From an uncultured Clostridia bacterium (GTDB lineage: Bacteria; Bacillota; Clostridia; Christensenellales; Aristaeellaceae), in contig CALVTQ010000124.1 in NCBI GenBank assembly GCA_944362695.1, positions 34,620-98,619 of the forward strand: 64,000 bases of DNA. Direction: 5' to 3'. The notes beneath the pieces are model-generated. The model made no database searches and was not told the origin of the DNA. It worked only from the letters and a program-made list of their open reading frames with translations. Numbering within the stretch: the stretch's first letter is position 1; each line of letters begins with the position of its first letter. Made by a program: the position numbers and the translations under genes. Of this stretch, positions 1,103-56,499 are shown one piece after another.

Positions 1103-1240
1103 AAGCCTGAGCAAGCAAAAAGCGTGCAGACAGGAAGCGATGCGCTGCACATGTTTATATCTGCCGTATTGCCGGGAATCCGCAATGCGCACGACGAGCG
1201 ACACCATACGCAATATGAACAAAGACAGACGGAGGTCAAT

Positions 1241-2128: not shown

Positions 2129-2129
2129 G

Positions 2130-2699: not shown

Positions 2700-2729
2700 A
2701 CGGCGAAATAAAACGGGTAAGGTGTGATC

Positions 2730-3647: not shown

Positions 3648-3652
3648 AACGC

Positions 3653-3686
3653 ACGCGGCTCAATCGCTGACTGGGCCGCGTTTTTG
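3653..3686 (+). terminator. Rho-independent terminator after rmlD
   Basis: ACGCGGC (3653-3659) pairs with GCCGCGT (3675-3681), followed by TTTTT. Confidence 0.55.
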
Positions 3687-3779
3687 TATGCGCGGGCATG
3701 CGGCGTCCTGCGGGGCGCGCGGGCTTGCGATGAACGGACAGGGAAAGCGGCTTGCCCCGGCGGACGCGAGGAGGTAACC

Positions 3780-4418
3780 ATGAAGATTCTGTTGACATGT
3801 TTTAAGCCGTTCGGCGGCGAGCGCGTCAACCCGGCGCAGCTGGCCGTGCACCGCGTGGCGGACTGCGTTGAAGGCGCGCAGATCGTCAAGCTCGACGTGC
3901 CGGTGGTCTTCGGCGTGTCGGCATGCGTTGTGCACATGGCGATGCGCAGCGAGAGGCCGGACGCCGTGCTCTGCGTCGGACAGGCGGGCGGGCGCAGCGG
4001 CATCACGGTTGAGCGTGTGGCCATCAATGTGGACGACGCGCGCATCGCCGACAACGCGGGCAACCTGCCCATCGACGCGCCCATCGCATCGGATGGCCCG
4101 GCGGCGTATTTCAGCACGCTGCCCATCAAGGCGATGGCCGCGGCCATTCGCGAGGCGGGCATCCCGGCGGGCATATCGAACACGGCGGGGACGTACGTGT
4201 GCAACCACCTGATGTACGGCGTGCTGCATGCCATCGCGAAGGAGTTCCCCGGCATGCGCGGCGGGTTCGTGCATGTGCCGTTCGCGCACGAGCAGGCGCT
4301 TGAGCGCCGCGAACCGTCGCTGTCCGTGGAGGATATGGTCAAGGGGCTCGAGGCGGCGATCGGCGCGATTGTGCGCTTTAAGACGGACATTGCGGCGTCC
4401 GAGGGGCGCGAGTGCTGA
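3780..4418 (+). CDS. pcp: Pyroglutamyl-peptidase I (pyrrolidone-carboxylate peptidase)
   Basis: MKILLTCFKPFGGERVNPA..., LCVGQAGGR, TAGTYVCNHLMY (Cys nucleophile context), FVHVP. ATG 3780 is preceded by GAGGAGG. Confidence 0.9.
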   Translation: MKILLTCFKPFGGERVNPAQLAVHRVADCVEGAQIVKLDVPVVFGVSACVVHMAMRSERPDAVLCVGQAGGRSGITVERVAINVDDARIADNAGNLPIDAPIASDGPAAYFSTLPIKAMAAAIREAGIPAGISNTAGTYVCNHLMYGVLHAIAKEFPGMRGGFVHVPFAHEQALERREPSLSVEDMVKGLEAAIGAIVRFKTDIAASEGREC

Positions 4419-12390: not shown

Positions 12391-12397
12391 GGACAGG

Positions 12398-15300
12398 ATG
12401 GTGAAGACATTGAAACGCTTGATTGGGCTGCTGGGCGTGCTTGTGGCGCTGGTGCTTTTGACGGGCGTTGCCGTGGCTGAGGAGACGGCTGCGGCTGACC
12501 CGGCCGCCGCACCCGTGACACAGGCGCTCCCGGACGAGACCGCCGAGGCAGCGGACGAGACCGCCGAGGCAGCGGACGAGACCGCCGTGACAGCGAACGA
12601 GACTGCCGCCACAGCGGACGAGGCAATCCTGGAGCCGGTGCTTCCCGTGAAATCCACGGCGGATTATCACGAGATCGTCGGCACCTACTCCATCGATGCG
12701 ACGATTCCGGCCTATGCCGACTACGTCGAGATGCACGAGGACGCGGTGCGCCCGGATGCGTCGATTGTCGTGGCGGCGGACAGCTTCATTCGCTACGAGG
12801 ATGAGGGTGTGGAGGCCGTGCCGCAGATTCTCGCGGGCTTTGAGGGCTGCGAGGGCAACGCCGTGCTCACCGGCGAGGAATCGCTGATCGAGTGGAAAGT
12901 GAACGTCGAGCAGGCGGGCCTGTACGACATGAGCATCCGCTACTACCCCTACGAGGGCAAGAACAGCGCCATCCAGCGCGCGTTCTTCGTGGACGGCGAG
13001 CTGCCCTACGGCGAGATGGCGACGGTCGAGTTCAACCGCGTCTGGCACAACGGCGACTTCGCCGAGACGATAGATGAAAACGGCGTGACCGTGCTGGCCT
13101 GGAACAAGGACAACCAGGGCAACGACCTCAAGCCCTCCGCCGAGGAGATCCCCGAGTGGGTCGACGGCGCGCTCTACGATTCCAACGGCTACATCACCGA
13201 GCAGCTGAGCGTCTATCTGGACGCGGGCGAGCACACGATCTCGATGCTCGCCATGCGCGAGCCGATGCTCGTCAGCGCCATCACGCTGACCAACACCGAG
13301 CGCCCGGCGGCCTATGCGGACGTCAAGGCGGCGGGCGACGCGGCGGGGCAGAAGGACACCTCCGGCGTCGTGGTGCGCTTTGAGGCGGAGAACGCCAAGA
13401 AGACCTCCTCCCAGATGCTCTATCCTGTGCAGGATCAGTCCAGCGCCGACGTCTATCCGGTGTCCACGCGCTACCTGCTCAACAACACCATCGGCGGCAA
13501 CAACTGGAAGAGCGCCGGCCAGTGGATCGAGTGGGAGTTCGAGGTGCCGCAGGACGGCTACTACGCGCTGTCCATGTTCGCCAAGCAGAACTTCGTGCGC
13601 GGCATCAACAGCTACCGCAAGATCAGCATCGACGGCGTCGTGCCGTTTGACGAGTGGAACGCATACGGCTTCAGCTACGATTCCACCTGGCGCATGGAGA
13701 CCATCGACGACGAGGCGGGCGAGCCGTATCGCGTGTATCTGACGGCGGGCAAGCACACGCTGCGCATGGAGGTCGTGCTGGGCGACATGGCGTCGATCAT
13801 CGCGCAGGTGCAGGACTGCGTGCAGCAGCTCAACGGCATCTACCGTCAGGTCATCTACATCACCGGCGTCGCGCCCGACGAGTTCCGCGATTATCAGATC
13901 GAGGCGAGCCTGCCGGGTCTTGAGGCCGAGCTGATTGCCGTGCAGGAGGAACTGAAGGTCGCGCTGGCGGCGCTGGAGAAGACAGCCGGCACCAACTCCG
14001 ACAAGCTGATCGTGCTGCGCACGATGGACGACCAGCTCGACGAGCTGATCGAGGATCAGGAGCGCTTCACCGAGGTTCTTTCCTCTTATAAGACGAACGT
14101 GCGCGCGTGCGGCAACTGGATCACGCAGGTGCTGGGCATGCCGCTGCAGCTGGACCGCATCTACGTCCACTCGGCCGACACCGACCCTGCGGCGGAGAGC
14201 GGCGGCTTCTTCGCGGGCCTTGCGCACGAGGCGAAGCGCCTGTACTACTCCTTCATCATCGACTACAACCAGGTCGGCAACGTCGCCGGTGAGGACACCG
14301 AGGGCGCCGTGCTCACGCTGTGGGTCGGCACGGGCCGCGACCAGGCGAACGTCATCAAGTCCCTGATCGACGAGCGCTTCACGCCGCAGACCGGCATCGC
14401 CGTCAACGTGCAGCTGGTCGACATGAACACGCTGCTGCGCGCCACGCTTTCCGGCGAGGGCCCGGATGTGGCGATTCAGGTCGCCAACACGAACGGCATC
14501 GCTGGCGCCGTCCTGAACACCGGCAACGACACCGCCGTCAACTACGGCCTGCGCGAAGCCGTGCTCGACCTGTCCCAGTTCGAGGACTTTGAGGAGGTCG
14601 TCGCGCGCTTTGCCCCGGCGTCTCTGGTGCCGCTGTCCTTCGGCGGCGCGACCTACGCGCTGCCGGACACGATGACCTTCCCGATGATGTTCTACCGCAA
14701 GGACATCCTCGCCGAGATCGGCATGGAGGTTCCGCAGACGTGGGACGAGGTCAAGGTCGCCATGACGGTTCTGGCCAAGAACCAGATGGAATTCGGCATG
14801 CTGCCCTCCGAGCAGATCTTTGCGATGCTGCTGTTCCAGAACGGCGGCGAGTACTACACCGAGAACGGCATGGCCTCCGCGCTTGACAGCGAGGTCGCCA
14901 TTAACGTCTTCAAGAAGTACTGCGAATACTACACCGATTACAAGCTCGACCGCGCGACCTCTGTGGAGGAGCGCTTCCGCACGGGCGAGTCCCCGATCAT
15001 CATCGCGGACTACACGACCTACAACAACCTGCAGGTCTCCGCGCCGGACATCAAGGGTCTGTGGGACTTCACCGTCGTCCCGGGCACGGTTCAGGAAGAC
15101 GGCACGATCAACCACATGACCGGCGCGACCGGCTTGGCCGACATCATCATGAGCGCGACCGAGTATCCGCAGGAGAGCTGGGAGTTCCTCAAGTGGTGGA
15201 CCTCCGCGGAGATCCAGACGGTCTACGGCCGCGAGATGGAGGCGCTGATGGGCGCGTCCGCCCGCGTGGCGACGGCCAACCGCGAGGCGCTGGCCAACCT

Positions 15301-15580
15301 GTCCTGGCCGATGAAGGACTACAAGGCCCTCGTCGCGCAGATGGACCAGGTCAAGGGCATCGAGCAGGTGCCGGGCGGCTACTACACCTGGCGTAACGTC
15401 AACAACGCCTTCTACACCATCACCACCGACACGGCGACCAACAACACCACGCCGCGCGAGGCGCTGATGGATCAGGTGTACTACATCGACGCCGAGATCG
15501 ACTACAAGCGCACTGAATTCGGCCTGCCGCTCGCCAATGACGACGCGCAGACCGCGCAGGGAGAGGAGGGCGCCAAATGA
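12398..15580 (+). CDS. Giant (1060 aa) extracellular solute-binding protein: signal/anchor, acidic heptad linker, two CBM-like modules, helical region, C-terminal CUT1 SBP domain
   Basis: N-terminal hydrophobic segment. IEWKVNVEQAGLYDMSIRYYP and IEWEFEVPQDGYYALSMFAKQ modules. C-terminal LTLWVGTGRDQANVIK...GGATYALPDTMTFPMMFYRKDIL...TWDEV typical of family-1 SBPs. 4-nt overlap with the next permease gene. Confidence 0.8.
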   Translation: MVKTLKRLIGLLGVLVALVLLTGVAVAEETAAADPAAAPVTQALPDETAEAADETAEAADETAVTANETAATADEAILEPVLPVKSTADYHEIVGTYSIDATIPAYADYVEMHEDAVRPDASIVVAADSFIRYEDEGVEAVPQILAGFEGCEGNAVLTGEESLIEWKVNVEQAGLYDMSIRYYPYEGKNSAIQRAFFVDGELPYGEMATVEFNRVWHNGDFAETIDENGVTVLAWNKDNQGNDLKPSAEEIPEWVDGALYDSNGYITEQLSVYLDAGEHTISMLAMREPMLVSAITLTNTERPAAYADVKAAGDAAGQKDTSGVVVRFEAENAKKTSSQMLYPVQDQSSADVYPVSTRYLLNNTIGGNNWKSAGQWIEWEFEVPQDGYYALSMFAKQNFVRGINSYRKISIDGVVPFDEWNAYGFSYDSTWRMETIDDEAGEPYRVYLTAGKHTLRMEVVLGDMASIIAQVQDCVQQLNGIYRQVIYITGVAPDEFRDYQIEASLPGLEAELIAVQEELKVALAALEKTAGTNSDKLIVLRTMDDQLDELIEDQERFTEVLSSYKTNVRACGNWITQVLGMPLQLDRIYVHSADTDPAAESGGFFAGLAHEAKRLYYSFIIDYNQVGNVAGEDTEGAVLTLWVGTGRDQANVIKSLIDERFTPQTGIAVNVQLVDMNTLLRATLSGEGPDVAIQVANTNGIAGAVLNTGNDTAVNYGLREAVLDLSQFEDFEEVVARFAPASLVPLSFGGATYALPDTMTFPMMFYRKDILAEIGMEVPQTWDEVKVAMTVLAKNQMEFGMLPSEQIFAMLLFQNGGEYYTENGMASALDSEVAINVFKKYCEYYTDYKLDRATSVEERFRTGESPIIIADYTTYNNLQVSAPDIKGLWDFTVVPGTVQEDGTINHMTGATGLADIIMSATEYPQESWEFLKWWTSAEIQTVYGREMEALMGASARVATANREALANLSWPMKDYKALVAQMDQVKGIEQVPGGYYTWRNVNNAFYTITTDTATNNTTPREALMDQVYYIDAEIDYKRTEFGLPLANDDAQTAQGEEGAK
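12536..12619 (+). repeat. Four tandem 21-bp coding repeats (ETAEAAD x2, ETAVTAN, ETAATAD)
   Basis: GAGACCGCCGAGGCAGCGGAC occurs twice exactly (12536-12556, 12557-12577), followed by two diverged copies. Confidence 0.9.
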
Positions 15581-27352: not shown

Positions 27353-28717
27353 ATGAAAAAAATGACCGCGCTGTTTGTCGCGCTGGTGATGCTGCTGTCC
27401 GTTTGCAGCTTCGCCGTGGCCGAGGAACCCCGTCACATCCTGATCGGCACGACCTGGGATATGTACTGGGATTCCACCCATGAGTCCATCGACGTGAACC
27501 CGTACTACTCCGGCAAGGAAACCGACCAGATGATCTTCGAGAACGTCAAGAAGGTCGAGGAAGAGAACAACGTCACCTTCGAGTATGTGAACATGCTCTA
27601 CGCCGGCGCTCAGGAGTCCATCAACACCTCCATCCTGGCCGGCACGCCCGATGTGGACATCTACACCGTCGGCCTGGCCATCGGCGCTCCGGCCGTTGCC
27701 AACGGCTACGCGGTCGACCTGCGCGACGTGCTGCCGGCGGATCACCCGGTGCTCACCGGCGAGGACCCGATCATGACCTACATCGACACCGGCGACGGCT
27801 CCGTCTCCCTGCTGACCGCGAACAACAAGGAGAACATCGTCGGCTCCACCTATCCGCTGAGCTTCAACCTGCAGATGATCCAGGACGCGAACCTCGAGGA
27901 TCCGCGTGACCTCGTCGAGCGCGGCGAGTGGACCTGGGATAAGTTCCGCGAGTACTGCAAGGCCCTGACCAAGGACACCGACGGCGACGGCACCATCGAC
28001 GTGTACGGCTTCGGCGGCTGGCCGGGAGACTACATGCCCAACATCCTTATGTCCAACGGCACCTACATTGCCGCGACCGCGACCGAGAACCTGTCCTCCC
28101 CGGAGGTTGCCGAGTGCCTGCAGTTCGTCCAGGATCTGAACCTGGTGGACGGCGTCATGTACCCGATCCCGGAGGAGAACGGCTGGGATATCTGCCGCGT
28201 GCTCTATCGTGACCAGAAGGTCGCCTTCTGCCCGAACGCTGCGTGGATCATGTCCTCCAACGACGACTACGGCTACCAGAGCGGCACGCCGGTTCTCGAC
28301 TTCGACATGGTGTTCGTGCCGTGGCCGGTCGGCCCGAGCGGCAATGCCGAGACCAACAAGCATAAGGTCGCTGAATCCTCCTGCTTCATGATCCCGGTCG
28401 GCACCGAGGATCCGGAGCTGGTCTTCAACGTCCTGTACGACATCCAGAACTGGTTCAACGGCGACCTGTCCATCCGCGATGATGAGGAAGCCCTCGACTG
28501 GTGGTATGGCGTCACCGCGAAGGACATCGACCTGCAGGACCACAACTTCGAGGTCATGTACCAGATGGGTCTCAAGCAGCAGTACGAGATGGTGAGCAAC
28601 CTCGGCTTCGAACTGCCTTTCCGTGAGCTGATCGCCGGTGACTACACCGTCGCTCAGTTCCAGGAGACCTACAAGCAGCAGGTGCAGGATGCCATCGACG
28701 GCCTGATGGGCAACTAA
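27353..28717 (+). CDS. CUT1 extracellular solute-binding protein (family 1)
   Basis: Signal peptide MKKMTALFVALVMLLSVCSFAVAEE. 454 aa with SBP-like pattern (DVDIYTVG, WTWDKFREYCKALT, AFCPNAAW). Confidence 0.85.
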   Translation: MKKMTALFVALVMLLSVCSFAVAEEPRHILIGTTWDMYWDSTHESIDVNPYYSGKETDQMIFENVKKVEEENNVTFEYVNMLYAGAQESINTSILAGTPDVDIYTVGLAIGAPAVANGYAVDLRDVLPADHPVLTGEDPIMTYIDTGDGSVSLLTANNKENIVGSTYPLSFNLQMIQDANLEDPRDLVERGEWTWDKFREYCKALTKDTDGDGTIDVYGFGGWPGDYMPNILMSNGTYIAATATENLSSPEVAECLQFVQDLNLVDGVMYPIPEENGWDICRVLYRDQKVAFCPNAAWIMSSNDDYGYQSGTPVLDFDMVFVPWPVGPSGNAETNKHKVAESSCFMIPVGTEDPELVFNVLYDIQNWFNGDLSIRDDEEALDWWYGVTAKDIDLQDHNFEVMYQMGLKQQYEMVSNLGFELPFRELIAGDYTVAQFQETYKQQVQDAIDGLMGN

Positions 28718-45776: not shown

Positions 45777-45819
45777 GGCTCTGCTCCGCGATTTTGCGGG
45801 GCAGGGCTTTTTTTGTTTT
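45777..45819 (+). terminator. Rho-independent terminator ending the Opp-type operon
   Basis: GGCTCTGCTCCGC-GATTTT-GCGGGGCAGGGCT stem-loop (two G-U pairs) followed by TTTTTTTGTTTT. Confidence 0.8.
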
Positions 45820-45976: not shown

Positions 45977-48166
45977 ATGAAGAAATGGATTGGTCTGCTG
46001 CTGGCGGCGGCGCTGCTCGCGCTGGGTCTGGCCGCATGCGCAGAGGGGAACACGACGCTCGACATGAACGACAGCGGCCGATACGATGGGGCCATGTCCA
46101 TGTGCTATGTGGGCGACACGCTGTACATCCTCGGCGGCAGTGCGCTCCACGCTTACGACGGCGAGACGATGACGGTCTGCGTCGATCTCGCGGACACGGC
46201 CATGCAGCGATACAACCCGGTGAGGCCGGAGGACAGCGTGCAGGCCGCCATATGGGACAGGGCCATCGGCCATATCTTCACCGACGGCGAGACGGTCTAC
46301 GGCCTGCATCCCTATTCGGGCGAGGTGTTCGAGGTTGCGGACGGTGAGCTCGTCCACGCCGGACAGGTTCCGCAGGAGCTGCTCTATGCGAGCGAGGAGG
46401 ACATTCACCGCGAGATCCAGGGCGTCGCCTGCGCGGGCGGCGGGCTCGCGCTGCTGTTGGGGACGGACACGTATGAGGAATACGACAAGATCGAGCTGGC
46501 GTACGTCGATTTTGTGAACGGCACGCACACCGTCAGCGCGATTGCGGGCATCAAGTCCATCGCGGCATGCGGGGACGGCCTGCTCGTCTACATCCTGGAC
46601 AGCGAAGGCACGGCGGTCTGGCGCTGCGACGCGAAGGGCGAGGCGCTCTCCGGCGAGGTCGTGCGCCTTGAGGCGGATGGGCAGCCCAGCGGCCTTCAGG
46701 CGTTCGGCGAGGGCGCGGTGTATCTGGACGGCAGCCGCGTATGCCTGACGGACGGGCAGGGCGGCGCGGCGGTCAAGGCATATGTGCCCGTGCAGTACGC
46801 ATACGGCAGCGCACCGGCGGCCTGCTCATCGGGCGGCATGTACGCCTATGCATACTCGAATTACGTCTTCCTGCGCGACATCAGCGGCGAGGACGCGGCG
46901 CAGAAGACCGTGATCACCGTCGCGGGCAGCCTCAGCCCGCAGACCATCATCGAATTCTGCGCAGAGAACCCGGATATCGCGGTCGATTCGCGCGATATCG
47001 GCGACGAAGAGGCGCTGCTGGCGGCGGCTGTGTCAAAGGACGCGGACATCGACGTGTTCGTGCTGTCCGCGCCGGGCGGCTATGCGGGGATGCTCGACGG
47101 CGGCTACCTCGCGCCGGTTGAGAGCGAGACGCTCATCGGGCAGGCGGCCATGCTCTATCCGGGGATTCAGGAGGCCGTCCTGCAGGACGGGTAGCTCTAC
47201 GCCTATCCGCTGCGGGTCGCGCCGCGCTGCTGGATGGTCAACGAGACGAAGTGGAGCGCATACGGGCTGGGCGAATACCCGCAGACGTTCACCGACGTGC
47301 TCGCCATGACCGACCTGTGGTATACGGACTTTGCGGCGGACTACCCCGACGACGCGCTCGCCGAGCTGCAGCAGGCGGGGCTGAAGACCTTCCTGTGCGA
47401 GATGGTCTATGCGTACATTCTGGAAAACGAGGAGAACGGCGCCGCACTGACGTTTGACACGCCGCAGATGCGGCAGGCGCTCGCGGACGCCGCGCAGTAC
47501 GCCTACCTGTTTGACAGCGACCACGAGATGTGGGGCATGCCGATGCTCAGCAGCAATTATATGGGCTTCGGCCACACATACACCGACAGAGACCGCAACC
47601 GCATGATCCGCACGCCCGGTCTCTCGCAGGACAGCAAGCAGCACATGTTCGCCGACGCGCAGCTTCTCGCGGTCAGCGCGGCGTCGCAGCATAAGGACGC
47701 GGCGGTGCGCTTCATCGAGTTCTGCGCGCAGAGCATGACGGCGCAGACGAAATATGAGATGATGCCCTCGCTCATGGAGCCGGTCGAAAACCCGCGATAC
47801 ACGTCGCGCGTGGCCGAGGTGAACGCCGAGATCGACAGCCTGCGCGCGCAGCACGAGGCCGCGAAGACGACGCAGGAGCGCGACACGATCTCCGGCATGA
47901 TCGCCGAGAAGGAGCGCATGCTCGCCTCTCTCGAGGACGCGCGATACACGATCTCCGCGGAGGACATCGCCGTATACAGGGAGATGGCCGAGGGGATGGA
48001 GATCCCGTACCGGTCGGCGTATTTCGGCGATGGCGGCGGCATGAGGTCGCTTGACGAGGTCATCGCGCGGTTCGCGGGCGATGGCTTTGAGGCGTCGGAG
48101 ATCGACGCGATGATCATGGAGCTCGACCGCGTAGCCCACATGGTCAGCGCGGAGGGCGGCAAATAA
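45977..48166 (+). pseudogene. Lipoprotein: beta-propeller-like N-domain fused to CUT1-type SBP domain, interrupted by in-frame TAG at 47192-47194
   Basis: Lipobox LALGLAAC. ORFs 45953..47194 and 47234..48166 are in the same frame, and the frame is open across the TAG (VLQDG-TAG-LYAYPLRVAPRCWMVNETKW). Confidence 0.75.
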
Positions 48167-48233
48167 AATAAGAAGCCAGCTGATGCGCGATATGCGTGTC
48201 AGCCTGCTTCGCATCGGGCGGCAGGTGAAAACG

Positions 48234-48746
48234 ATGAAAAGAGCGTGCGTTTGGCTGTGTCTGGCGGCGATGCTGATGAGCGGCGACGCGGCGGGGGCGG
48301 AGTTCCGCGCGACGGGCGTCAAGCAGGCGTGCTACATGCGCATGCGCGTCTACACGACGGACGAGGGCATATTCCGCCTGGGGACGCGGTGGAGCCTCAA
48401 GGACTGCGGCGCGGACAACCACGCCGTGTTCGTCAGGCATTACGTGCCGCACGACACGATGCCGTACACCAACCTCTTTCGCGTGTGCAAAGTCGACGAG
48501 GACGGCAGCGTGCTCTCCGTGCACGGGGAAAAGTGGTGCACGCCGGGGCTCAACGTGCCGATTTCCAGCGACGATATCGAGATGAATGAATACTACACCG
48601 TCAAGGCGCGCGGCAACACCATGCACTATGAATACGACGGCGTGGAGCGCATCGAGCTGCGCGTGAACATGTATGTCAACATGGACGAGGTGCCGGGGGA
48701 GAAGAAGGTCACCGACGACGACACCGACCACGCGATATTCGATTGA
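48234..48746 (+). CDS. Small secreted Cys-containing hypothetical protein
   Basis: Signal peptide MKRACVWLCLAAMLMSGDAAGAE. 170 aa. Confidence 0.6.
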   Translation: MKRACVWLCLAAMLMSGDAAGAEFRATGVKQACYMRMRVYTTDEGIFRLGTRWSLKDCGADNHAVFVRHYVPHDTMPYTNLFRVCKVDEDGSVLSVHGEKWCTPGLNVPISSDDIEMNEYYTVKARGNTMHYEYDGVERIELRVNMYVNMDEVPGEKKVTDDDTDHAIFD

Positions 48747-48780
48747 CGTGAACATGAGAAGAACGAAACGGAGGCAGGGC

Positions 48781-49845
48781 ATGAAACGCAGAATCATCAC
48801 ACTGGCGGCGATGCTTTTGTGCGTGGCGAACGCGGCGGGCGCACAGGGCATCTTCACCGGCAGGGTCGTCGCGGGCGAGGCGCAGACCGTGCGCGCGCCG
48901 TTCGCGGGCTATGTGCAGGACGTGTTCGTCAAAAGCGGCGAGCGCATCGAGGCGGGCGCGGACGTCGCGCTCATGCAGACGCAAAAGGTCTACGCACCGG
49001 CGGACGGCACGGTCAGCGGCGTGTTCGCCAAAGAGGGCGATTCGGCGAAGGACGCGGCGGATCGCTACGGCGCGGCGATGTACGTCGAGCCCGCCAACCG
49101 CTACCGCCTGGACGCGAGCACGCAGAAGAGCTTCTCCGCGAGCGAAAATAAGTACGTCCACATCGGCGAGACGGTCTATCTCTTCTGCACGCGCGACGGC
49201 AGTCACACCGGCACGGGCTTCGTCGCGGCGCTCGACGAGAAGGATTCCAAGAAGTTCACCGTGGAGGTCACCGAGGGCGAGTTCTACATGAGCGAGACGG
49301 TCGGCATCTTCCGCGACCCGGCGTGCACATACATGACCAAGATCGGGCAGGGGACGGTGATAAGGACGCCGCCCATCGCCGTGAGCGCCGAGGGGAGCGT
49401 GCTGCGCATCCATGTGCGCTCCGGGGACAGCGTCGCGCGCGGCGATCTGCTGATGGAGACGGTGGAGGGCACGCTCGATGCGCTCTCGCCGGTCAGCCCC
49501 GCCGCGAAAAGCGAAAGCGCGGGCATCGTCGCATCGGTCGACGCGAAGCCCGGCGCGAAGGTCGAGAAGGGCGCGGCGATCGCCACGGTCTATCCGGCGG
49601 ACGCGCTGATGCTCGAGATCGAGATCGGCGAGGCGGAGCTGGGCGGCGTCAAGGCCGGCGACGAGGTCGAGATCGAGTTCGGGTTCAGCGCGGAGACGGC
49701 GGCGCGCACGAGCGGCACGATATGCGATATCTCGTATCTGACGGCGGAGAGCGAGGCGGGGTCGGCGGCGTATCACGCGTATGTGTCGTTTGCGCCGGAC
49801 GACGATGTGCGCATCGGCATGACGGCCGTCGTGTATATGAAGTGA
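48781..49845 (+). CDS. HlyD/membrane-fusion-like protein (multiple lipoyl-type hairpins)
   Basis: N-terminal anchor. APFAGYVQDVFVKSGERIEAGADVALM, APADGTVSGVFAKEGD, VRSGDSVARGDLLMETV, AGIVASVDAKPGAKVEKGAAIATV barrel-sandwich hybrid motifs. Confidence 0.7.
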   Translation: MKRRIITLAAMLLCVANAAGAQGIFTGRVVAGEAQTVRAPFAGYVQDVFVKSGERIEAGADVALMQTQKVYAPADGTVSGVFAKEGDSAKDAADRYGAAMYVEPANRYRLDASTQKSFSASENKYVHIGETVYLFCTRDGSHTGTGFVAALDEKDSKKFTVEVTEGEFYMSETVGIFRDPACTYMTKIGQGTVIRTPPIAVSAEGSVLRIHVRSGDSVARGDLLMETVEGTLDALSPVSPAAKSESAGIVASVDAKPGAKVEKGAAIATVYPADALMLEIEIGEAELGGVKAGDEVEIEFGFSAETAARTSGTICDISYLTAESEAGSAAYHAYVSFAPDDDVRIGMTAVVYMK

Positions 49846-49857
49846 CGGGTGGGACGC

Positions 49858-50712
49858 ATGTTCGAGAGAAAAAAATCGGTGCTGCTGTTCCTCGCGCCGG
49901 GGCTGGCGATGCTGCTGATCTTCTATGTGATCCCGTTCGTGGGCGGCATCGGGTATAGCGTGACGGACGGCACGTTCCAAAATGCGTTCGTGGGGCTTGA
50001 GAATTATAAGCGGCTGTGGGGGAACGAGATGTTTTTGCTCGGCCTGCGCAATACGCTGGAGCTGTCGGCGGTGTGCGCGCCGCTGCTGTGGGGCTGCGCG
50101 CTGGGGCTGGCGGCGGGGCTGGAGGAGATGAAGAGGAAGACGGCGCTGTTTCGCTCGTGCGTGCTGATGCCGTATCTGATGCCGTCGTCGGCGATGATGC
50201 TGGTGTGGCTGCTGCTGTTTGACTACGGCGGGCCGGTGAACCGCGTGGTGTGCGCGCTGGGGATGGAGCGCGTGTACTGGCTGGAGGGCGCGGCGCTGCG
50301 GCTGCCGGTGATTCTGATGTTTTTGTGGAAGAACCTCGGGTTCAGCGTGGTGATCTTTTCGGCGGCGCTCGCGGCGGTGCCGGTCGCGGTTCAGGAGTAT
50401 GCGCGGCTGGACGGGGCGGGGTTCGTGACGCGGATGACGCGCATCACGCTGCCGCTGATCGCCCCGAGCGCGTTTCTGGTGTTCGTGCTGGCGTGGATCA
50501 ACGCGTTCCGGATCTTTAAGGAGGTCTACTTCATCGCGGGCGCGTATCCCGATTATTCGGTATATACGCTGCAAAATTATATGAATAACATGTTCGCGAG
50601 GCTCGATTATCAGAATGTGACCGCAGCGGCGTATTCCTTCGCGGCGATTGTGCTCGTGCTGTTCGGCGCGTTGTTCGCTGTGCAGAAACGGGCCAGCGCG
50701 GATCTGTACTGA
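49858..50712 (+). CDS. CUT1 sugar ABC transporter permease (MalF-like)
   Basis: EAA loop EYARLDGAGFVTRMTRITLPLIAPS. 6 TM pattern. Confidence 0.88.
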   Translation: MFERKKSVLLFLAPGLAMLLIFYVIPFVGGIGYSVTDGTFQNAFVGLENYKRLWGNEMFLLGLRNTLELSAVCAPLLWGCALGLAAGLEEMKRKTALFRSCVLMPYLMPSSAMMLVWLLLFDYGGPVNRVVCALGMERVYWLEGAALRLPVILMFLWKNLGFSVVIFSAALAAVPVAVQEYARLDGAGFVTRMTRITLPLIAPSAFLVFVLAWINAFRIFKEVYFIAGAYPDYSVYTLQNYMNNMFARLDYQNVTAAAYSFAAIVLVLFGALFAVQKRASADLY

Positions 50713-51045
50713 GTGGCTTTTGTAGGCGCGAAGCGAAGAAGGGGTCCAGGGGACCGGAGCCTGCCGCCGCCAGTGGCGGATGAAGGCAGGCGGAGCGTCG
50801 GGAACCTTAACGAGCGACCGCAGGGCGCGACTATAAGGTTCCCCGGATTGAATCCCTGGCGGGATCAAAGGGCAGAGCCCTTTGCAGGGTTTGGGACAGC
50901 GTCCCAACGTAACCCCTATGGCGCAGCCACCCAAAAGCCGTCAAGCAGCGAAGCGTCCTTGACGGGGCAGAGCACAAAGCCGCATCAATCCGCCGCCCTT
51001 GTGCCCCGTTCCCCCTAAAAAACTAACACCCAAAAACCAAAGAGA
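50713..51045. repeat. Hairpin-rich non-coding insertion (REP/MITE-like element or structured RNA) between the two permease genes
   Basis: At least six stem-loops, e.g. GGGAACCTTA(50800-09)/TAAGGTTCCC(50835-44), CAAAGGGC-AGA-GCCCTTTG (50866-84), TTGGGAC-AGC-GTCCCAA (50890-906), CCGTCAAG(50938-45)/CTTGACGG(50958-65). GCGAAGC mini-hairpin motif occurs twice. Confidence 0.6.
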
Positions 51046-51057
51046 GGTGTTTTCCCC

Positions 51058-51915
51058 ATGAGAACCCCCGCGCTGAAACGGGCGCTGGGCTATGGCCTGC
51101 TCGCCGCAATGGCCGCCGTGATCCTGCTGCCGGTCGCCTTCACGTTCCTGTATTCGTTCTTTTCGCCGGGCGAGATCCGGGATTTCATGGACATGCGCAG
51201 GAATTACGACACGTCCGTGTTCATGGCGGTGAAGCTGCGCCCGGCGGTGTTCTCGCTGCGCCAGTATTACACGATCCTCATCGAGGACATGACGATCCTG
51301 CGGTATTTCGTCAATTCGGCGATGTATGCGGCGCTGATCCTCGCGGGGCAGGCGCTGGTGATCCCGGCGATGGCGTATGCGCTGTCGCGGTTTCGGTTCT
51401 TCGGCAGGGACGCGATTTTCTTTGCCGTGATCGTGCTGATGCTGCTGCCGTATCAGGTGACGATGGTGCCCAATATGCTGACGATGCGCGCGCTGGGGCT
51501 GATGGATACGGTCTGGGCGATCGTGCTGCCGGCGGTGATCTCACCGTTTTACGTGTTTCTGGTCAGGCAGTTCATGGTCGGCATACCGGCGCAGATGCTC
51601 GAGGCGGCGCAGATCGACGGCGCGGGGACGGTGCGCTGCTTCTTTTATATGGTGCTGCCGTGCTCAAGGCCGATTCTGGGCTGCGCGGCGGCGCTGTCGT
51701 TCGCCGATTGCTTCAACATGGTCGAGCAGCCGCTCGCGTATCTGACATCGCGCACGGACCTGTACCCGCTGTCGGTCATGTTCAATCAGCTGAGCCAGAA
51801 GAGCACGGGCATCGAATTCGCCGGGGCGGCGCTGTATGTGCTGCCCGCGCTGTTCGTGTATATGATCTTTCAGCAGGACATTCTGGCGGGCATACGGCTC
51901 GGCGAACTCAAATGA
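51058..51915 (+). CDS. CUT1 sugar ABC transporter permease (MalG-like)
   Basis: EAA loop EAAQIDGAGTVRCFFYMVLPCSRPI. AGAGAGG RBS. Confidence 0.88.
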   Translation: MRTPALKRALGYGLLAAMAAVILLPVAFTFLYSFFSPGEIRDFMDMRRNYDTSVFMAVKLRPAVFSLRQYYTILIEDMTILRYFVNSAMYAALILAGQALVIPAMAYALSRFRFFGRDAIFFAVIVLMLLPYQVTMVPNMLTMRALGLMDTVWAIVLPAVISPFYVFLVRQFMVGIPAQMLEAAQIDGAGTVRCFFYMVLPCSRPILGCAAALSFADCFNMVEQPLAYLTSRTDLYPLSVMFNQLSQKSTGIEFAGAALYVLPALFVYMIFQQDILAGIRLGELK

Positions 51916-51930
51916 ACGGAGGGCAAAGCA

Positions 51931-53241
51931 ATGCGGAAATTCGCGATACGTGGGCTGGTGTGCCTGGCGGCGGTGGTCGCGCTGAGCATGTTCTTCGCCG
52001 GGACGATCAGGACGATGACCACGGCGAAGGTGCAGATCGTGACGGCGAAGGAGGGCAGGCTCGAGGCACGCGTGACGCTCACGGGCAGGCTCGCGTTCCC
52101 CGAGACGACGCAGGTGAGCGTTCCGGGCGTGGGCGGGGAGATCGCGCTGACGGTTAGTGAGGTCTATGTCGCGCCGGGGCGCTTCGTCGAGGCGGGCGAG
52201 GCGCTGTTCGCCGCGTCGGTGACGGACTATGACAAGCTGATGGCCGGGTATCAGGCCGCGTTTGACGAAGCACAGGGCGAGGCGATGGAGGCCGGACGCA
52301 AGATCGGCGCGATGCGCATGACGCGCGCGGAGGAGATGTGGATCGAGGCATATGACGCGCTCTGCGCAGCGGAGAAGGCCGTGCTGCTCGCCGAGACGGA
52401 TATCGCCGTTCACGATAATCTTCACGGCGAAGACGGCGAGGCGCGCAAATCGCTCGAGGACGCGCTTTCGGCGGCGGAGGGCGAAAGGGAGAGCGCGCAG
52501 GCGGCGTTTGACAGGGCCAACCGGCTCGGCGTCAACATGGAGCTGGCGCAGCTCGTCCTCGGAGAGCGTGAGGCGCGCGAGAAGATGGCGAAGGCGGGCG
52601 AGGATATGGCGAATCTGCGCACGACGGCGGAGCGCGCAGCCTGCGTGTATGCGCCGCATGCGGGCTATGTGGTGGAGACAGCGGTCGAGGCGGGCAAGGC
52701 GTTTGACGGGCAGGGCGCGGCGGTCGTGCTCAGCGCGGAAAGCGCAGACCAGACCGGCGGCGTGCTGCGCGCGGCGCTCGGCGAGACGGGCATGCGCATC
52801 GAGCCCGGCACGAAGGTCGCCATCGCGGGCGCCGGCGCGGAGATCACAGCCGAGATCACGGCGCTCGGCGTCGGCGCGGGCGGGAGCTGGCATGCCGACG
52901 CGGCGCTGACCCGCACGCAGATCGCGGAGCTCGGCGGTGCGGAAAAGCTGATGAACGGCGACGTGAGCATGACGTGCAGCTACCGCGCGCAGACGAGCAC
53001 GACGCTGCTGCCGGTGAGCGCCGTGCGCGGCACGGGCGAGGAGCGCTACGTCTACACCGTCAGCGAGCAGAGAAATGCGCTCAGTGAGACGACGATGACC
53101 GTGACCAGGCAGACGGTGCACGTGCTCGCGCAGACGGAGGACACCGTGTCCATCGAGGAGGGGCTTGGCAGGCAGCGCATCGCTTACATGGAGGACAGAC
53201 CGATCGAGGACGGCGCCGAGGTGATGGTCTATGCGCAGTAA
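51931..53241 (+). CDS. HlyD/membrane-fusion-like protein with long coiled-coil hairpin
   Basis: N-terminal TM. A/E/R-rich ~170-aa helical region, then beta-barrel-like C-terminus (YVYTVSEQ...TVTRQTVHVL). Confidence 0.7.
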   Translation: MRKFAIRGLVCLAAVVALSMFFAGTIRTMTTAKVQIVTAKEGRLEARVTLTGRLAFPETTQVSVPGVGGEIALTVSEVYVAPGRFVEAGEALFAASVTDYDKLMAGYQAAFDEAQGEAMEAGRKIGAMRMTRAEEMWIEAYDALCAAEKAVLLAETDIAVHDNLHGEDGEARKSLEDALSAAEGERESAQAAFDRANRLGVNMELAQLVLGEREAREKMAKAGEDMANLRTTAERAACVYAPHAGYVVETAVEAGKAFDGQGAAVVLSAESADQTGGVLRAALGETGMRIEPGTKVAIAGAGAEITAEITALGVGAGGSWHADAALTRTQIAELGGAEKLMNGDVSMTCSYRAQTSTTLLPVSAVRGTGEERYVYTVSEQRNALSETTMTVTRQTVHVLAQTEDTVSIEEGLGRQRIAYMEDRPIEDGAEVMVYAQ

Positions 53242-54340
53242 GACGGGCGTCGCGCTGGCTGTCGCGGCGGCGCTGCTGCTGGCGTTGGGCTTTTTGTGCA
53301 TGGCGGGCGTGGGGGACAACCTGCAATACGTGCTGCCCGCGCCGCAGACGCTTTCGCAGGCATACGAGCAGGCGCAGCGGCTGCTCTCCGGCATGGGCGA
53401 GACCGTGTCAACGCCTGCTGTCGCGGCGCGCGCACAGGGCGTGAGCATACAAAACGCCCAGAACGGCGAGGCTGCGGAGGCGACGGTCTACGCCGTGGGC
53501 GAGGGATATTTCGATTTTGCGCACGTCACGCTGCTCGAGGGGCGGCTGCTCTCGCCCTATGACATCGCCAACGCGCAGCCGGTCGTGCTGCTGGACAGCG
53601 GCGCGGCGCTGCGGCTGTTTCGCGGGGATTCGCCCATCGGCGGCAGCGTGACGATCGGCGCGCAGGCGTATCGCGTCGTGGGCGTCGTCGCGGGCGGCCG
53701 ACGCACCGGCGAGACGGACGAGCACGTCGCCTGCATCCCCGTCACGGCGGCGCAGGACATGGACACGCTCGAGATCGCGGCGCGCGGCTCCGGGGCGGCG
53801 GCAGCAGCGATATTCGAAAGCACGCTGCGCGCATGGCAGGGCGGCGGCACGTTCTACTTTTATGAAAAGCTGAAGATGGGCGCGTGGCTGCCGCTGCGCT
53901 GGGTGCTGGTTCTGCTGGCTGCGCGTCTGGCGGCGGCGTGTCTGCGCGGCATCGTGCGCTATGCAAAGGGAAGCGCGCGGACGTTTGGCGAGCGGCTCAA
54001 GCACAGCTACGCGGGGGCGCTTATGCCGTTCGCGCTCTTGCGGATGATGCTGGGCGCGGCGATGTGCGCGGGGCTGGCGGCGCTTTTGTGGGGCATCGCG
54101 CTGGCGGCTGCGCAGCCGCTGTACATGTTCGGCGAGTGGGTGCCGGGCGTGTTCGTCGAGCTGTCCTCGCTCGAGCAGACGTTCTGGAATTTGAACGATT
54201 TGAACGCGGCGGGCGTGCGGTATATGAGCCGGGACGCCTGCGTCATGGAGCTCGCGCGCGGTCTGATCCGCTGGGGGACGCTCTGCGCGCTGCTGGGCGC
54301 GGTGTGCGGGCGGCGCAAAGCGCGCGAAGAATCTGCATAA
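53231..54340 (+). CDS. MacB/FtsX-like ABC permease (periplasmic-core domain plus 3 C-terminal TM), no cognate ATPase adjacent
   Basis: TM1, then ATVYAVGEGYFDFAHVTLLEGRLLSPYDIANAQPVVLLDSGAALRLFRGDSPIGGSVTIGAQAYRVVGVV (MacB_PCD-like), then three hydrophobic segments. Overlaps the upstream gene by 11 nt. Confidence 0.65.
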   Translation: MRSKTGVALAVAAALLLALGFLCMAGVGDNLQYVLPAPQTLSQAYEQAQRLLSGMGETVSTPAVAARAQGVSIQNAQNGEAAEATVYAVGEGYFDFAHVTLLEGRLLSPYDIANAQPVVLLDSGAALRLFRGDSPIGGSVTIGAQAYRVVGVVAGGRRTGETDEHVACIPVTAAQDMDTLEIAARGSGAAAAAIFESTLRAWQGGGTFYFYEKLKMGAWLPLRWVLVLLAARLAAACLRGIVRYAKGSARTFGERLKHSYAGALMPFALLRMMLGAAMCAGLAALLWGIALAAAQPLYMFGEWVPGVFVELSSLEQTFWNLNDLNAAGVRYMSRDACVMELARGLIRWGTLCALLGAVCGRRKAREESA

Positions 54341-54443
54341 AATGTCCGTCCGATGACGAAAAAACACGGCGGCCGGCGGCTTTGACGCGCTGGCTGCTTT
54401 TTGTGTGCGATGCGAAGTGCTTCAAACCCGGCCCTGAAAAATG

Positions 54444-54472
54444 TTGACAACACACATACCGGGTGATAGAAT
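54444..54472 (+). promoter_or_regulatory. Sigma-70-type promoter ~470 nt upstream of tagG-like gene
   Basis: TTGACA (54444-49), 17-nt spacer, TAGAAT (54467-72). Confidence 0.55.
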
Positions 54473-54945
54473 TATTGAGGATGCGCATGTGCGATGCGGA
54501 TTCTGTCGGAGAATGAGCGTACATATATTTTGAAATATAACCGAAATTCGGGCGCATGGGCTGAGTGCTGATGCGCCGGTTCCTGAATGGATGAGGCGGA
54601 TTCGCCATCAAAACCGAAGGGAGGGATGCAGCGGGCGGCAGCTTAAAAGGCATGATTTGACACGGATTTTATGGGCAATTCAGGGACCGGGACGGCGGAT
54701 GTGACGCCGCGCCCCAGACGGATGAACAATGGAGACGGCCATGCAGAAGCCGGCAAAGCCTGCGGCGTTCGCGCTCGAGGAAGAGCGCACGGCCAGGCGG
54801 CGAGGCGAAGCGCATGGCGGCTTTTCTTAAAAGCATTGAATAATACAGACAGCCGTCCGGCGCTGCGGTTTTGCGCGGCGAGGTCTGCTGCGGCATCCCG
54901 CTGCATGAGGCGGGTGCTTCTTCCCGTTGGCTAGGAGGGTAAGAA

Positions 54946-55713
54946 TTGAAACAGAAATTGAAGAATTACAGCTTTCTTTTTGAAGAGCTGGTCAAGCGCG
55001 ATTTCAAAAAGAAATATAAGCGGACGGTGCTGGGCATGCTCTGGAGCATCCTCTCGCCGCTTTTGACGCTGCTGGTGATGCGCCTTGTATTCATGGAGTT
55101 CTTCGGGCGCAGCGTCGAGCATTATACCACATACATCTTCTGCGGCAACCTGATCTTCTCGTATTTCAATGAATCCACGTCGCAGGGCATGACGTCCCTG
55201 ATGGGCAACGCACCGATCTTCACGAAGGTGAACGTGCCCAAATATCTGTTCCTGCTGTCCAAGAACGTGCAGGCGCTTTTGAACTTCGGGCTGACGCTGC
55301 TCGTGTTCGTGGTGTTCTGCTTCCTTGACAAGATTACGTTCACGTGGCGCGTGGTCATGCTGATCTATCCCATTGTCCTGCTGCTCTTGTTCAACATCGG
55401 CATGGGCCTGATTCTGTCGGCACTGTTCGTGTTCTTTAGGGATATTCAATACCTGTAGAGCGTCTTCACGATGCTGCTGATGTACATGTCCGCGATTTTC
55501 TACACCCTCGATCCGTTCAGCGCGCAGGCCCAGAACCTGTTCCTGCTGAACCCGATCTACGTCTTCATCAAGTATTTCCGCCAGATCGTCATCGACGCGG
55601 CGATCCCGTCCCTCGGGCTGCACATGCTGATGCTGGCGGACGTGGCGATCGTGCTGGGCATCGGCTGCTGGATGTACAAGAAGTACAACACCAAGTTCCT
55701 GTACTATGTGTAA
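54946..55713 (+). pseudogene. tagG: ABC-2 type polysaccharide/teichoic-acid export permease (TagG/Wzm-like) with in-frame TAG at 55456-55458
   Basis: TTG start after AGGAGGG. ORFs 54946..55458 and 55471..55713 share one frame, and the frame is open across the TAG (FFRDIQYL-TAG-SVFTMLLMYMSAIFY). Confidence 0.75.
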
Positions 55714-55725
55714 CGGAGGGCGTGT

Positions 55726-56499
55726 ATGAGCATACTGGAAGTGCATGACGTCTCCATCCGCTATATGACAGGAGACTTCAAGGAAATCGGTTTGAAGGAA
55801 TACGTCACGCGGAAGCTGACGAAGAATTACAAGGTCATTGAGTTCTGGGCGGACAAGGATGTGACCTTCACGCTTGAAAAGGGCGACATGCTGGGCATCA
55901 TCGGCGCGAACGGCGCGGGCAAGAGCACGCTGCTCAAGGCCATCTCCGGCATCATGGAGCCCACGAAGGGTTGGGTGAAGCGCGAGGGCAAGATCGCCGC
56001 GCTGCTGGAGCTGGCCAGCGGATTTGACGGGGATCTGACCGTGCGCGAGAATACCTATCTGCGCGGGGCGATGCTGGGCTACACGCGCAAATTCATGGAC
56101 GACACATATGGGCAGATCATCGAATTCGCCGAGCTCAGGGAGTTCGAAGACAGGCCGTTCAAGCAGCTCTCCTCGGGCATGAAGAGCAGGCTCGCGTTCT
56201 CCATCGCCAGCCTCGTCGAGCCGGATATCCTGATCCTGGACGAGGTGCTGTCCGTGGGCGACGGTGCGTTCCGCAAAAAGAGCGAGGCGAAGATGCGCGA
56301 GATCATCAACGGCGGCGCGACGACGATTCTGGTGTCCCATTCGATTGAACAGGTGCGCGAAATGTGCAGCAAGATTCTGTGGCTGCACAGGGGACATCAG
56401 GTTGCCTTCGGCGACGACGTGAAGGGCATCTGCGACCAGTATCAGGCGTTTCTGGACGGCAAGCTGAAGCTCGACGCCAACGGCAAGATACTGGCCTGA
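55726..56499 (+). CDS. tagH: Polysaccharide/teichoic-acid export ABC ATP-binding protein (TagH/Wzt-like)
   Basis: Walker A GANGAGKST, signature LSSGMKSRL, Walker B ILILDE. Confidence 0.9.
   Translation: MSILEVHDVSIRYMTGDFKEIGLKEYVTRKLTKNYKVIEFWADKDVTFTLEKGDMLGIIGANGAGKSTLLKAISGIMEPTKGWVKREGKIAALLELASGFDGDLTVRENTYLRGAMLGYTRKFMDDTYGQIIEFAELREFEDRPFKQLSSGMKSRLAFSIASLVEPDILILDEVLSVGDGAFRKKSEAKMREIINGGATTILVSHSIEQVREMCSKILWLHRGHQVAFGDDVKGICDQYQAFLDGKLKLDANGKILA

Follow-up and report, generated by a model that had tools for sequence, protein, structure and literature searches.

A conserved cassette of uncultured Clostridia joins a CUT1-type importer to membrane-fusion adaptors and a MacB-fold protein without an encoded ATPase

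Seven co-directional genes on the + strand of a 64,000-nucleotide stretch of DNA from an uncultured Clostridia bacterium (contig CALVTQ010000124.1 of assembly GCA_944362695.1; the whole stretch is hereafter the window) bring together parts of a CUT1-type sugar importer, two adaptors of the membrane fusion protein (MFP) type and a protein with a MacB-type periplasmic core domain (PCD). Here we report that this region, at window positions 45977–54340, is one conserved cassette and not two neighbouring operons; because the combination recurs in more than 100 independent loci, we take it as real and not as an accidental mixture. The core consists of five genes, encoding a secreted binding protein of ~750 amino acids (aa), two CUT1 permeases, the adaptor MFP2 and the PCD protein; in the lineage of the window, these are joined by another adaptor, MFP1, and by a small secreted protein. 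The cassette apparently represents an undescribed kind of transporter assembly. We tentatively propose a CUT1 importer that is powered in trans by a shared ATPase and permanently fitted with an ATPase-less, MacAB-like outer assembly.

In MacB-type proteins, four transmembrane (TM) helices are combined with a Porter/Sabre domain, and a coupling helix that joins TM2 to TM3 contacts the ATPase. Adaptors with MacB homologues are known in Gram-positive bacteria, as in YknXYZ and Spr0693–0695, where their role is still debated, and the MacB review names the function of periplasmic adaptors and MacB-type proteins in organisms that have no outer membrane as an open question (PMC5985334). The sequence-only reading that preceded this analysis knew of no described mechanism for a mixture of importer, adaptor and MacB-type parts in an apparently monoderm organism. 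Adaptors with MacB-type permeases were already established in monoderms; given the precedents of YknXYZ and Spr0693–0695, the cassette is set apart by its invariable linkage to a type I importer and its lack of an ATPase, and not by having adaptors. No description of such a cassette was found in the literature searched, which included work on orphan MacB/FtsX proteins; text matches to ‘MacB’ in PMC12838199 proved to be strain names and were rejected.

The cassette amounts to a natural experiment: its MacB-fold protein and MacA-like adaptor seem to have lost an ATPase of their own and invariably come with a sugar-type importer. Many uncultured Clostridia of gut and rumen carry it, and the unit is invisible in genome annotation because its pieces are called ‘ABC transporter permease’ and the like (ABC, ATP-binding cassette), which is the only name that NCBI gives to one family member. 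If the parts form one complex, they would extend the known ways in which ABC modules combine and could explain how such bacteria capture large glycans. Were importer and adaptors truly one integrated machine, adaptors in single-membrane bacteria would serve uptake, not efflux.

Layout and boundaries of the cassette

The cassette opens with the gene for a large two-domain binding protein of ~729 codons (45977–48166), which contains an in-frame TAG at 47192–47194, followed by genes for a small Cys-containing secreted protein of 170 aa (48234–48746), the adaptor-family protein MFP1 (48781–49845) and CUT1 permease 1, of the UgpA/MalF type (49849–50712). A non-coding, hairpin-rich spacer of 345 bp (50713–51057) separates the latter from CUT1 permease 2, of the UgpE/MalG type (51058–51915), after which come the MacA/YknX-like adaptor MFP2 (51931–53241) and the PCD protein, of predicted MacB fold and without an ATPase domain (53231–54340). 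Gaps between successive genes are 67, 34, 3, 345 and 15 nt, and MFP2 and the PCD gene overlap by 11 nt. Order, strand and spacing are as the sequence-only reading had described them, with short gaps or overlaps apart from the 345-bp insertion, and, as it also claimed, no ATPase is encoded within 45977–54340.

Signals on either side are predicted to delimit the unit. On the + strand upstream, a terminator-like hairpin at 45777–45808, with a 14-pair stem that includes 9 GC pairs and is followed by a T-run (TTTTTTTGTTT), is predicted to close the preceding gene and to set the 5′ boundary of the cassette transcription unit. Downstream on the same strand, a promoter-like site at 54444–54472 (TTGACA, a 17-nt spacer and TAGAAT with a TG extension; 11 of 12 positions matching) is predicted to start a separate Wzm/Wzt-like unit, which marks the 3′ boundary.

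Conservation across Clostridia

A word-indexed search for relatives of the PCD protein gave only 11 matches, whose contigs provided the first genomic contexts. Five loci at 57% identity (L001–L005) encode, in order, an intact binding protein of 730 aa, a 172-aa protein, MFP1, two permeases, MFP2 and the PCD protein. Two others (L006 and L007) encode the binding protein, both permeases, MFP2 and the PCD protein, with MFP1 present or not and the small protein missing. A scan of species representatives, at one genome per species, yielded 17 loci, every one of them from uncultured Clostridia (Christensenellaceae, ‘Ca. Ventricola’, Oscillospiraceae and unclassified lineages) and every one with the core order kept. 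The commonest order in the tblastn synteny map was a Pro/Thr-rich secreted protein of ~700 aa, MFP1, a binding protein of ~775 aa, permease 1, permease 2, MFP2 and the PCD protein. An exhaustive profile search with a threshold of E ≤ 1e-30 assembled a PCD family of 184 representatives at 50% identity, nearly all of 365–415 aa and matching the profile from end to end; the distant members with enough flanking sequence had the same five-gene core in five cases out of five (in the loci named L026, L027, L033 and L115).

The strongest evidence that the mixture is not accidental, as judged from gene order, comes from a search in the reverse direction, in which 80 metagenome loci were chosen solely through permease 2, at 53–72% identity. 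MFP2 and the PCD gene lie immediately downstream in 39 of the 40 loci with at least 2.9 kb of downstream sequence, and MFP2 is present in 58 of the 59 loci with at least 1.5 kb. On the other side, the binding protein and permease 1 are found in 43 of the 45 loci with at least 3.4 kb upstream. One locus, L050 (1137–7749), is the sole case in which unrelated open reading frames follow permease 2 in place of MFP2 and the PCD gene.

Across the genome and metagenome loci together, MFP2 is always immediately upstream of the PCD gene, and the MFP2–PCD pair was never seen without the permeases where the flank was long enough. The order of the cassette is kept from 78% down to ~27% protein identity, and the metagenome loci range from 40 to 65% in GC content. 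The sequence-only reading had allowed that orthologous regions might resolve into two independent operons, each with its own ATPase. That possibility fails because ABC ATPases are almost never near the cassette, and the importer and MFP/MacB-like parts are contiguous in every informative relative.

The cassette also varies among loci. Christensenellaceae-type cassettes begin with a secreted protein of ~680–720 aa that has long Pro/Thr/Glu-rich linkers and a conserved C-terminal region (L008 1381–3423; L023 ~1190–3295; L007 3–1361) and that matches no Pfam family; the clade of the window carries an unrelated 170-aa secreted protein in its place. This small protein has orthologues of 65–66% identity at the same position in L001–L005, is absent from the other loci, and gave no family match in searches with hidden Markov models (HMMs). 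Binding-protein regions are ~1600 aa long in the variants L073–L079, gaps of ~1 kb with no called gene lie inside the L115 cassette (4547–5694 and 7584–8633), and in L027 (10001–11668; P0074) the PCD protein is extended to 555 aa by a C-terminal, SCP2_2-like region. Downstream of the cassette in its closest relatives, L001–L005 (for example, L001 13185–17225) are phage-type integrases, a UPF0122 protein and an IS66 transposase fragment; because the integrases and the IS66 fragment follow the cassette, it may lie on or beside a mobile element in these loci.

The PCD protein and its predicted MacB fold

The PCD protein (369 aa) matches MacB_PCD at 4e-17, above the gathering score. An AlphaFold model built from a 94-sequence alignment reached a predicted local distance difference test (pLDDT) score of 96.9 and a predicted template-modelling score of 0.90 (a 12-sequence alignment gave a pLDDT of 53). 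In the model, TM1 (residues 2–25) leads into the core domain (30–210), from which a long TM2 helix (211–256), a four-residue turn and TM3 (261–299) continue to an outer helix (311–325) and TM4 (334–368). Foldseek aligned the whole chain over ~390–430 columns with MacB (5gko_A; 6.6e-14, 400 columns), Spr0695 (5xu1_M), LolE (7arh_E), YbbP and YtrF, and a sequence profile reaches E. coli MacB (5nik_J) from TM1 into TM3 (profile positions 6–307). On the basis of the model, the PCD protein is predicted to have the whole MacB/LolE four-helix fold.

The sequence-only reading had called this protein a MacB/FtsX-like permease. The MacB part of that call is borne out by the MacB_PCD match and the fold, and the FtsX part stands at the level of the fold and fails by HMM: the FtsX domain (PF02687) was detected in 0 of 12 members at E ≤ 10 and in 0 of 94 at E ≤ 1. 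There is no fused nucleotide-binding domain, and among the more than 100 loci only L001 has an adjacent, co-oriented ATPase gene. Because neither the FtsX HMM match nor a linked ATPase is found, the PCD protein is not classed as a membrane subunit of a canonical type VII ABC transporter (MacB/LolCE/FtsX). Its PCD region also matches the ADOP family TIGR03434 at 6e-16, far below the cut-off.

Conservation differs between the cytoplasmic and outer parts of the chain. Cytoplasmic exposure amounts to ~35 residues, made up of at most 6 at the N terminus, ~21 in the loop and ~8 at the C terminus. The cytoplasmic loop at 242–262 is the least conserved segment (mean entropy, 3.01), barring a near-invariant Tyr260; in the model, the region corresponding to the coupling element consists of TM2 up to residue 256, the four-residue turn and then TM3, with no separate helix. 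The most conserved segment (mean entropy, 2.28) is an outer shoulder of 45 aa at 296–340, which carries the motif P.Y.F.EWVPE..V...SI..FW.L.

The adaptors

Both adaptors had been called MFP-like from the sequence; for MFP1 the call exceeds HMM thresholds, and for MFP2 it falls below them, the relationship being indicated by a TIGR01730 E value and by profile comparison. MFP1 matches HlyD_3 at 6e-17 (62.7 bits; cut-off, 22.2), HlyD_D23 at 6e-12 (45.7 bits; cut-off, 30) and Biotin_lipoyl at 3e-12, and its profile matches MacA (4dk0, 3fpp and 5nik_D) and Spr0693 (5xu0) at ~1e-6. It has a cleavable-type signal peptide, two lipoyl-like barrel-sandwich motifs (36–89 and 199–226) and the HlyD_3 β-barrel. 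The ~110 residues between the lipoyl-type motifs are β-rich by eye, with no long α-hairpin evident. Most Christensenellaceae-type genome loci encode MFP1. Among the 80 metagenome loci, many of which do not reach far enough upstream to show whether it is there, it was detected in 25; by its distribution, it is an accessory part, found in many but not all cassettes.

MFP2 has no Pfam match. It aligns with the RND_mfp model TIGR01730 over residues 173–413 at 8.8e-12 (44.6 bits, below the curated cut-off of 94.9), and its profile matches MacA (4dk1; 1.9e-5), HlyD and AcrA; on these scores MFP2 is a statistical relative of the membrane fusion protein family that lies under the curated thresholds. 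The chain comprises an N-terminal membrane anchor, a split lipoyl motif, a β-barrel and a membrane-proximal region. Inserted in the split lipoyl motif are 142 residues (95–236) that contain no proline and are 72% helix-favouring, and this insert is presumed to form a long α-hairpin.

The importer half

The permeases carry the marks of a CUT1 pair. Permease 1 matches BPD_transp_1 at 4e-15 (56.4 bits) and permease 2 at 1e-7 (32.3 bits), with a gathering score of 26.4; the best matches are UgpA for permease 1 (3e-26) and UgpE for permease 2 (9e-19), the latter being UgpE/MalG-like. The EAA loop is the coupling element through which such permeases dock the ATPase. In permease 1 it reads EYARLDGAG...ITLP...P, with the consensus EYA.LEGA....ITLP...P kept in 95 loci; in permease 2 it reads EAAQIDGAG...LP...P, and the residues of the consensus EAa..DGaG..R....lP...P are invariant or nearly so in 109 loci.

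In the binding protein, an L-A-A-C lipobox marks the signal peptide, which precedes an N-terminal domain of ~340 aa and a C-terminal, CUT1-type sugar-binding domain. The window’s two fragments gave no Pfam or other family match when searched alone; a profile of 16 orthologues matches CUT1 binding proteins over positions 347–668 (4zza, 2e-13; 1eu8, 5e-11), and the orthologues in L006 and L033 carry SBP_bac_8 and SBP_bac_1 assignments. The CUT1-type binding domain claimed from the sequence is supported by that profile. The propeller-like N-terminal domain claimed alongside it fares less well. Weak matches are mostly to propellers, with the Bacteroides hybrid two-component sensor 3ott the best (E = 0.003), followed by hemopexin, DDB1 and a PQQ-type enzyme in the PDB and by Kelch, PQQ_2, SGL and BNR in Pfam, but none is a significant relative, and repeats in a self-comparison reach only E = 0.009–0.03, which is not significant. 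A β-propeller-like fold for this domain is plausible.

Membrane anchoring of the binding protein differs among the relatives, ~20 orthologues having no lipobox. At window 12398–15577 and 27353–28714, and in L001–L033, most binding proteins carry AxA-type signal peptides and no lipobox, an unusual state for Firmicutes with a single membrane, and only the cassette binding protein of the window carries L-A-A-C. The idea that the module cages an anchor-less binding protein was rejected as non-specific: it is weakened because ordinary binding proteins in the window that are without a lipobox have no such module.

The missing ATPase

No MalK/MsmK-type ATPase is encoded in the cassette or elsewhere in the 64-kb window. 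ABC ATPase matches occur in 3 of the 80 metagenome loci, in each case on the strand opposite the cassette and not next to it, and the genome loci have none within 10 kb except for one distant, opposite-strand match in L014. Among the first genomic contexts, L001 alone has an ABC ATPase directly upstream of the cassette. An ATPase hidden nearby was considered and rejected, the OppD/F-like genes at 35–37 kb and the Wzt-like gene at 55.7 kb belonging to other systems; the latter, an ABC_tran ATPase at 55726–56499, pairs with a Wzm/TagG-like ABC2_membrane permease at 54946–55713, behind the promoter-like site.

CUT1 loci in Firmicutes commonly use one promiscuous ATPase encoded elsewhere, an example being MsmK in Anaerocellum bescii (PMC12838199), and the absence of an ATPase is normal for the CUT1 half of the cassette. 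The other CUT1 permease pairs in the window likewise have none.

Two loci have ABC-2-like sets at their flanks that were not seen elsewhere. In L001, the ABC_tran ATPase and proteins of 264 and 284 aa lie directly upstream (577–2926) and another pair, of 264 and 287 aa, downstream (11175–12825); in L033, a divergent ATPase and two ABC2_membrane_6 proteins flank the cassette (1472–4028).

Relation to known systems

The closest relatives of the outer half are YknXYZ of Bacillus and Spr0693–0694–0695 of Streptococcus pneumoniae, Gram-positive MacAB-like systems that appear among the PDB matches (YknZ, 5f9q; Spr0695, 5xu1_M; Spr0693, 5xu0). Like the cassette, these place a membrane-anchored, MacA-like adaptor beside a four-helix permease with a periplasmic core domain in a Firmicute. 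They differ in that an ATPase is always present (YknY or Spr0694) and that there is neither a binding protein nor type I permeases; the cassette, in turn, has no ATPase, no FtsX HMM match, a variable cytoplasmic loop and an obligate CUT1 linkage. The importer half shares with MalEFGK2, UgpBAEC and MsmEFG with its shared MsmK the two EAA-loop BPD_transp_1 permeases and a cluster-B-type sugar-binding domain, and with Firmicutes CUT1 loci the placement of the ATPase outside the locus. Unlike these importers, the cassette has a binding protein roughly double the usual length, which carries an additional N-terminal domain; it always includes an adaptor and a MacB-fold protein, and has no consistent hydrolase or regulator.

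Further systems resemble single features. The cyanobacterial glycolipid exporter DevBCA also combines an adaptor with a separate MacB-type permease of ~380–400 aa, and MFP1 matches the DevB-type TIGR02971 at 6e-5, but DevBCA has its ATPase, DevA, in the operon, uses TolC in a diderm envelope and contains no importer components. The ‘orphan’ permeases of the ADOP family are, like the PCD protein, MacB_PCD permeases without an adjacent ATPase gene. ADOP proteins are duplicated, have FtsX domains, occur in Acidobacteria and are not known to be linked to adaptors or importers. FtsEX with its coiled-coil partners EnvC, PcsB and CwlO offers a non-transport precedent in which a type VII fold acts on a coiled-coil protein on the outside; FtsX needs FtsE, and the partner is a hydrolase activator that is not of the MFP family. 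MFP2 is unlike these partners in that its RND_mfp match spans the barrel and membrane-proximal regions.

Proposed mechanism and alternative explanations

In the mechanism that we tentatively favour, the permease pair and the binding protein would import a carbohydrate-like solute, energized by a promiscuous ATPase of the MsmK/MsmX type encoded elsewhere, as in other Firmicutes CUT1 loci. MFP2 and the MacB-fold protein would form a complex on the plan of MacAB or YknXZ, in which a ring of adaptors sits on dimerized periplasmic core domains. Without a motor of its own, this assembly would remain passive on the outer face and assist the importer, for example by forming a funnel across the wall zone or by providing a site where the oversized binding protein, or its ligand, can dock. 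The competence of the importer is supported by the conserved EAA loops and by the homology of the binding domain to CUT1 proteins. That the assembly would have no own motor is suggested by the negative FtsX HMM result (94 of 94), the tiny and variable cytoplasmic loop and the conserved outer shoulder.

Several points weigh against this proposal. Every characterized MacB-type protein works with an ATPase (PMC5985334), and a member without one would be an unprecedented claim. The near-invariant Tyr260 at the cytoplasmic turn could be a docking point, and L001 does have an ABC ATPase directly upstream. The linkage between the MacB-fold protein and the permeases could reflect co-regulation only. 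Finally, no glycoside hydrolase, regulator or catabolic gene is consistently found beside the cassette, whereas a CUT1 locus for nutrient uptake would usually have such neighbours. The only regulator seen beside any cassette is in L026, where an extracytoplasmic function (ECF)-type sigma factor and a DUF4367 protein lie directly upstream (989–2331).

That the cassette constitutes a new class of ABC machine, in which the ATPase-less MacB-fold protein and adaptor ring are structurally integrated with a type I importer, either driven by its ATPase or acting as a fixed conduit or dock across the wall zone, is possible but doubtful. A rival account would have a CUT1 importer co-transcribed with an independent exporter of the MacAB/DevBC type that recruits its ATPase in trans, the two performing linked tasks, such as taking one compound in and sending another, or a by-product, out. 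The MacB fold and MacA-like adaptor, the ATP dependence of every characterized relative, Tyr260 in the TM2–TM3 turn and the ATPase gene adjacent in L001 all suit an exporter, and ‘orphan’ MacB-type permeases are a recognized annotation class, to which the TIGR03434 match of the PCD protein connects. An exporter is nonetheless unlikely: L001 is alone among more than 100 loci in having a co-oriented adjacent ATPase, the cytoplasmic surface is minimal and its loop the least conserved part of the protein, none of the 94 members matches the FtsX HMM, and the MFP2–PCD pair always accompanies the permeases where the flank sufficed.

We think it rather improbable that the cassette is a hybrid machine in which membrane contacts transmit the importer’s ATPase cycle mechanically to the MacB-fold protein and adaptors, so that both the inward step and an outward or gating movement draw on a single motor. 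The strict linkage and translational coupling agree with it, as do the restriction of conserved ATPase-docking loops to the permeases and the enlarged outer shoulder beside TM3/TM4, which as the most conserved part of the PCD protein is a possible interface; the scheme is, however, purely inferential, and no known example couples type I and type VII ABC folds. We give a similarly low probability to an envelope device, and not a nutrient importer, that senses, or hands a glycan, glycolipid or surface protein to, the cell surface, with the binding protein as receptor or chaperone. The missing hydrolase, regulator and catabolic neighbours would fit, as would the ECF sigma factor and DUF4367 protein upstream in L026, the Pro/Thr-rich secreted protein of ~700 aa in Christensenellaceae-type cassettes and the resemblance of the N-terminal domain to the glycan-sensing propeller of Bacteroides hybrid sensors (3ott, E = 0.003). 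Yet that match is not significant, a binding protein with EAA-loop permeases is an import signature, and we know of no established exporter with a type I fold. As for two unrelated operons lying side by side by chance in this genome, an idea to which the 345-bp spacer that splits the cluster might lend itself, the spacer is absent in orthologues and the order persists over the full range of identity and GC content given above; we regard chance adjacency as refuted and give it next to no credence.

State of the cassette in this strain

Two in-frame TAG codons bear on whether this copy is active. The binding-protein reading frames lie in one frame and align end to end with intact orthologues of 730–781 aa, which have Leu, Gln, His or Glu at the position of the TAG at 47192–47194, inside the binding domain and in the motif ‘DG-x-LYAYP’. 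The second TAG, at 55456–55458, lies inside the Wzm/TagG-like permease downstream of the cassette, where the 120 closest homologues (77–83% identical; one is named ‘uncultured Agathobaculum sp.’) all have Trp. Recoding was considered because no gene among the ~50 in the window ends in TAG; no tRNA gene is present in the window, and TAG accounts for 12 of 173 stops in the relatives.

A sense reading of TAG is unlikely. Nonsense mutation (or a base-call error) is the simpler explanation because the two sites match different residues, each is accounted for by a single C:G>T:A change (TGG>TAG and, plausibly, CAG>TAG), and TAG is a rare terminator in the relatives. The codon at 47192–47194 is thus probably a genuine nonsense mutation, and since it cuts the binding-protein gene, the cassette is probably impaired in this strain. 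Of the two signs of decay named in the sequence-only reading, the TAG therefore probably stands, and the 345-bp insertion is a weak one, a similar insert being present in L015.

The spacer between the two permease genes is absent from that junction in all orthologous loci; in L001–L005, for instance, nothing of the kind separates them. It keeps a ribosome-binding site for permease 2 (AGAGAGG upstream of the ATG) and is strongly structured, with a minimum free energy of −143 kcal/mol (z = −2.5). Identification as a known RNA or a terminator was rejected, there being no Rfam match and no terminator-like site inside. Short modules of the spacer (GCGAAGCGAAGAAGGGG and TTGGGGC...GCCCCAA hairpins) are shared with intergenic DNA at L015 7448–7580, L015 15144–15221 and L074 11067–11121, and one of the L015 inserts sits inside its own cassette at a different junction, between permease 2 and MFP2. 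The spacer resembles a small hairpin element of dispersed type whose presence the operon tolerates, and is not clear evidence of decay.

Surroundings of the cassette in the window

A large glycan-utilization region occupies window 4505–28717. It encodes glycoside hydrolases of families GH42, GH26 (three genes, two with the carbohydrate-binding module CBM35) and GH44, a 1060-aa protein with a C-terminal SBP_bac_1 domain, an NHL-repeat propeller protein, a DUF5696 protein and a triple-CBM65 protein; two more pairs of CUT1 permeases are encoded there, again with no ATPase. On the other side of the cassette, GC content falls to 0.57 at 54001–56000, around the Wzm/Wzt-like pair, compared with ~0.63 elsewhere, and the promoter-like site at 54444–54472 is followed by a non-coding leader of ~470 nt.

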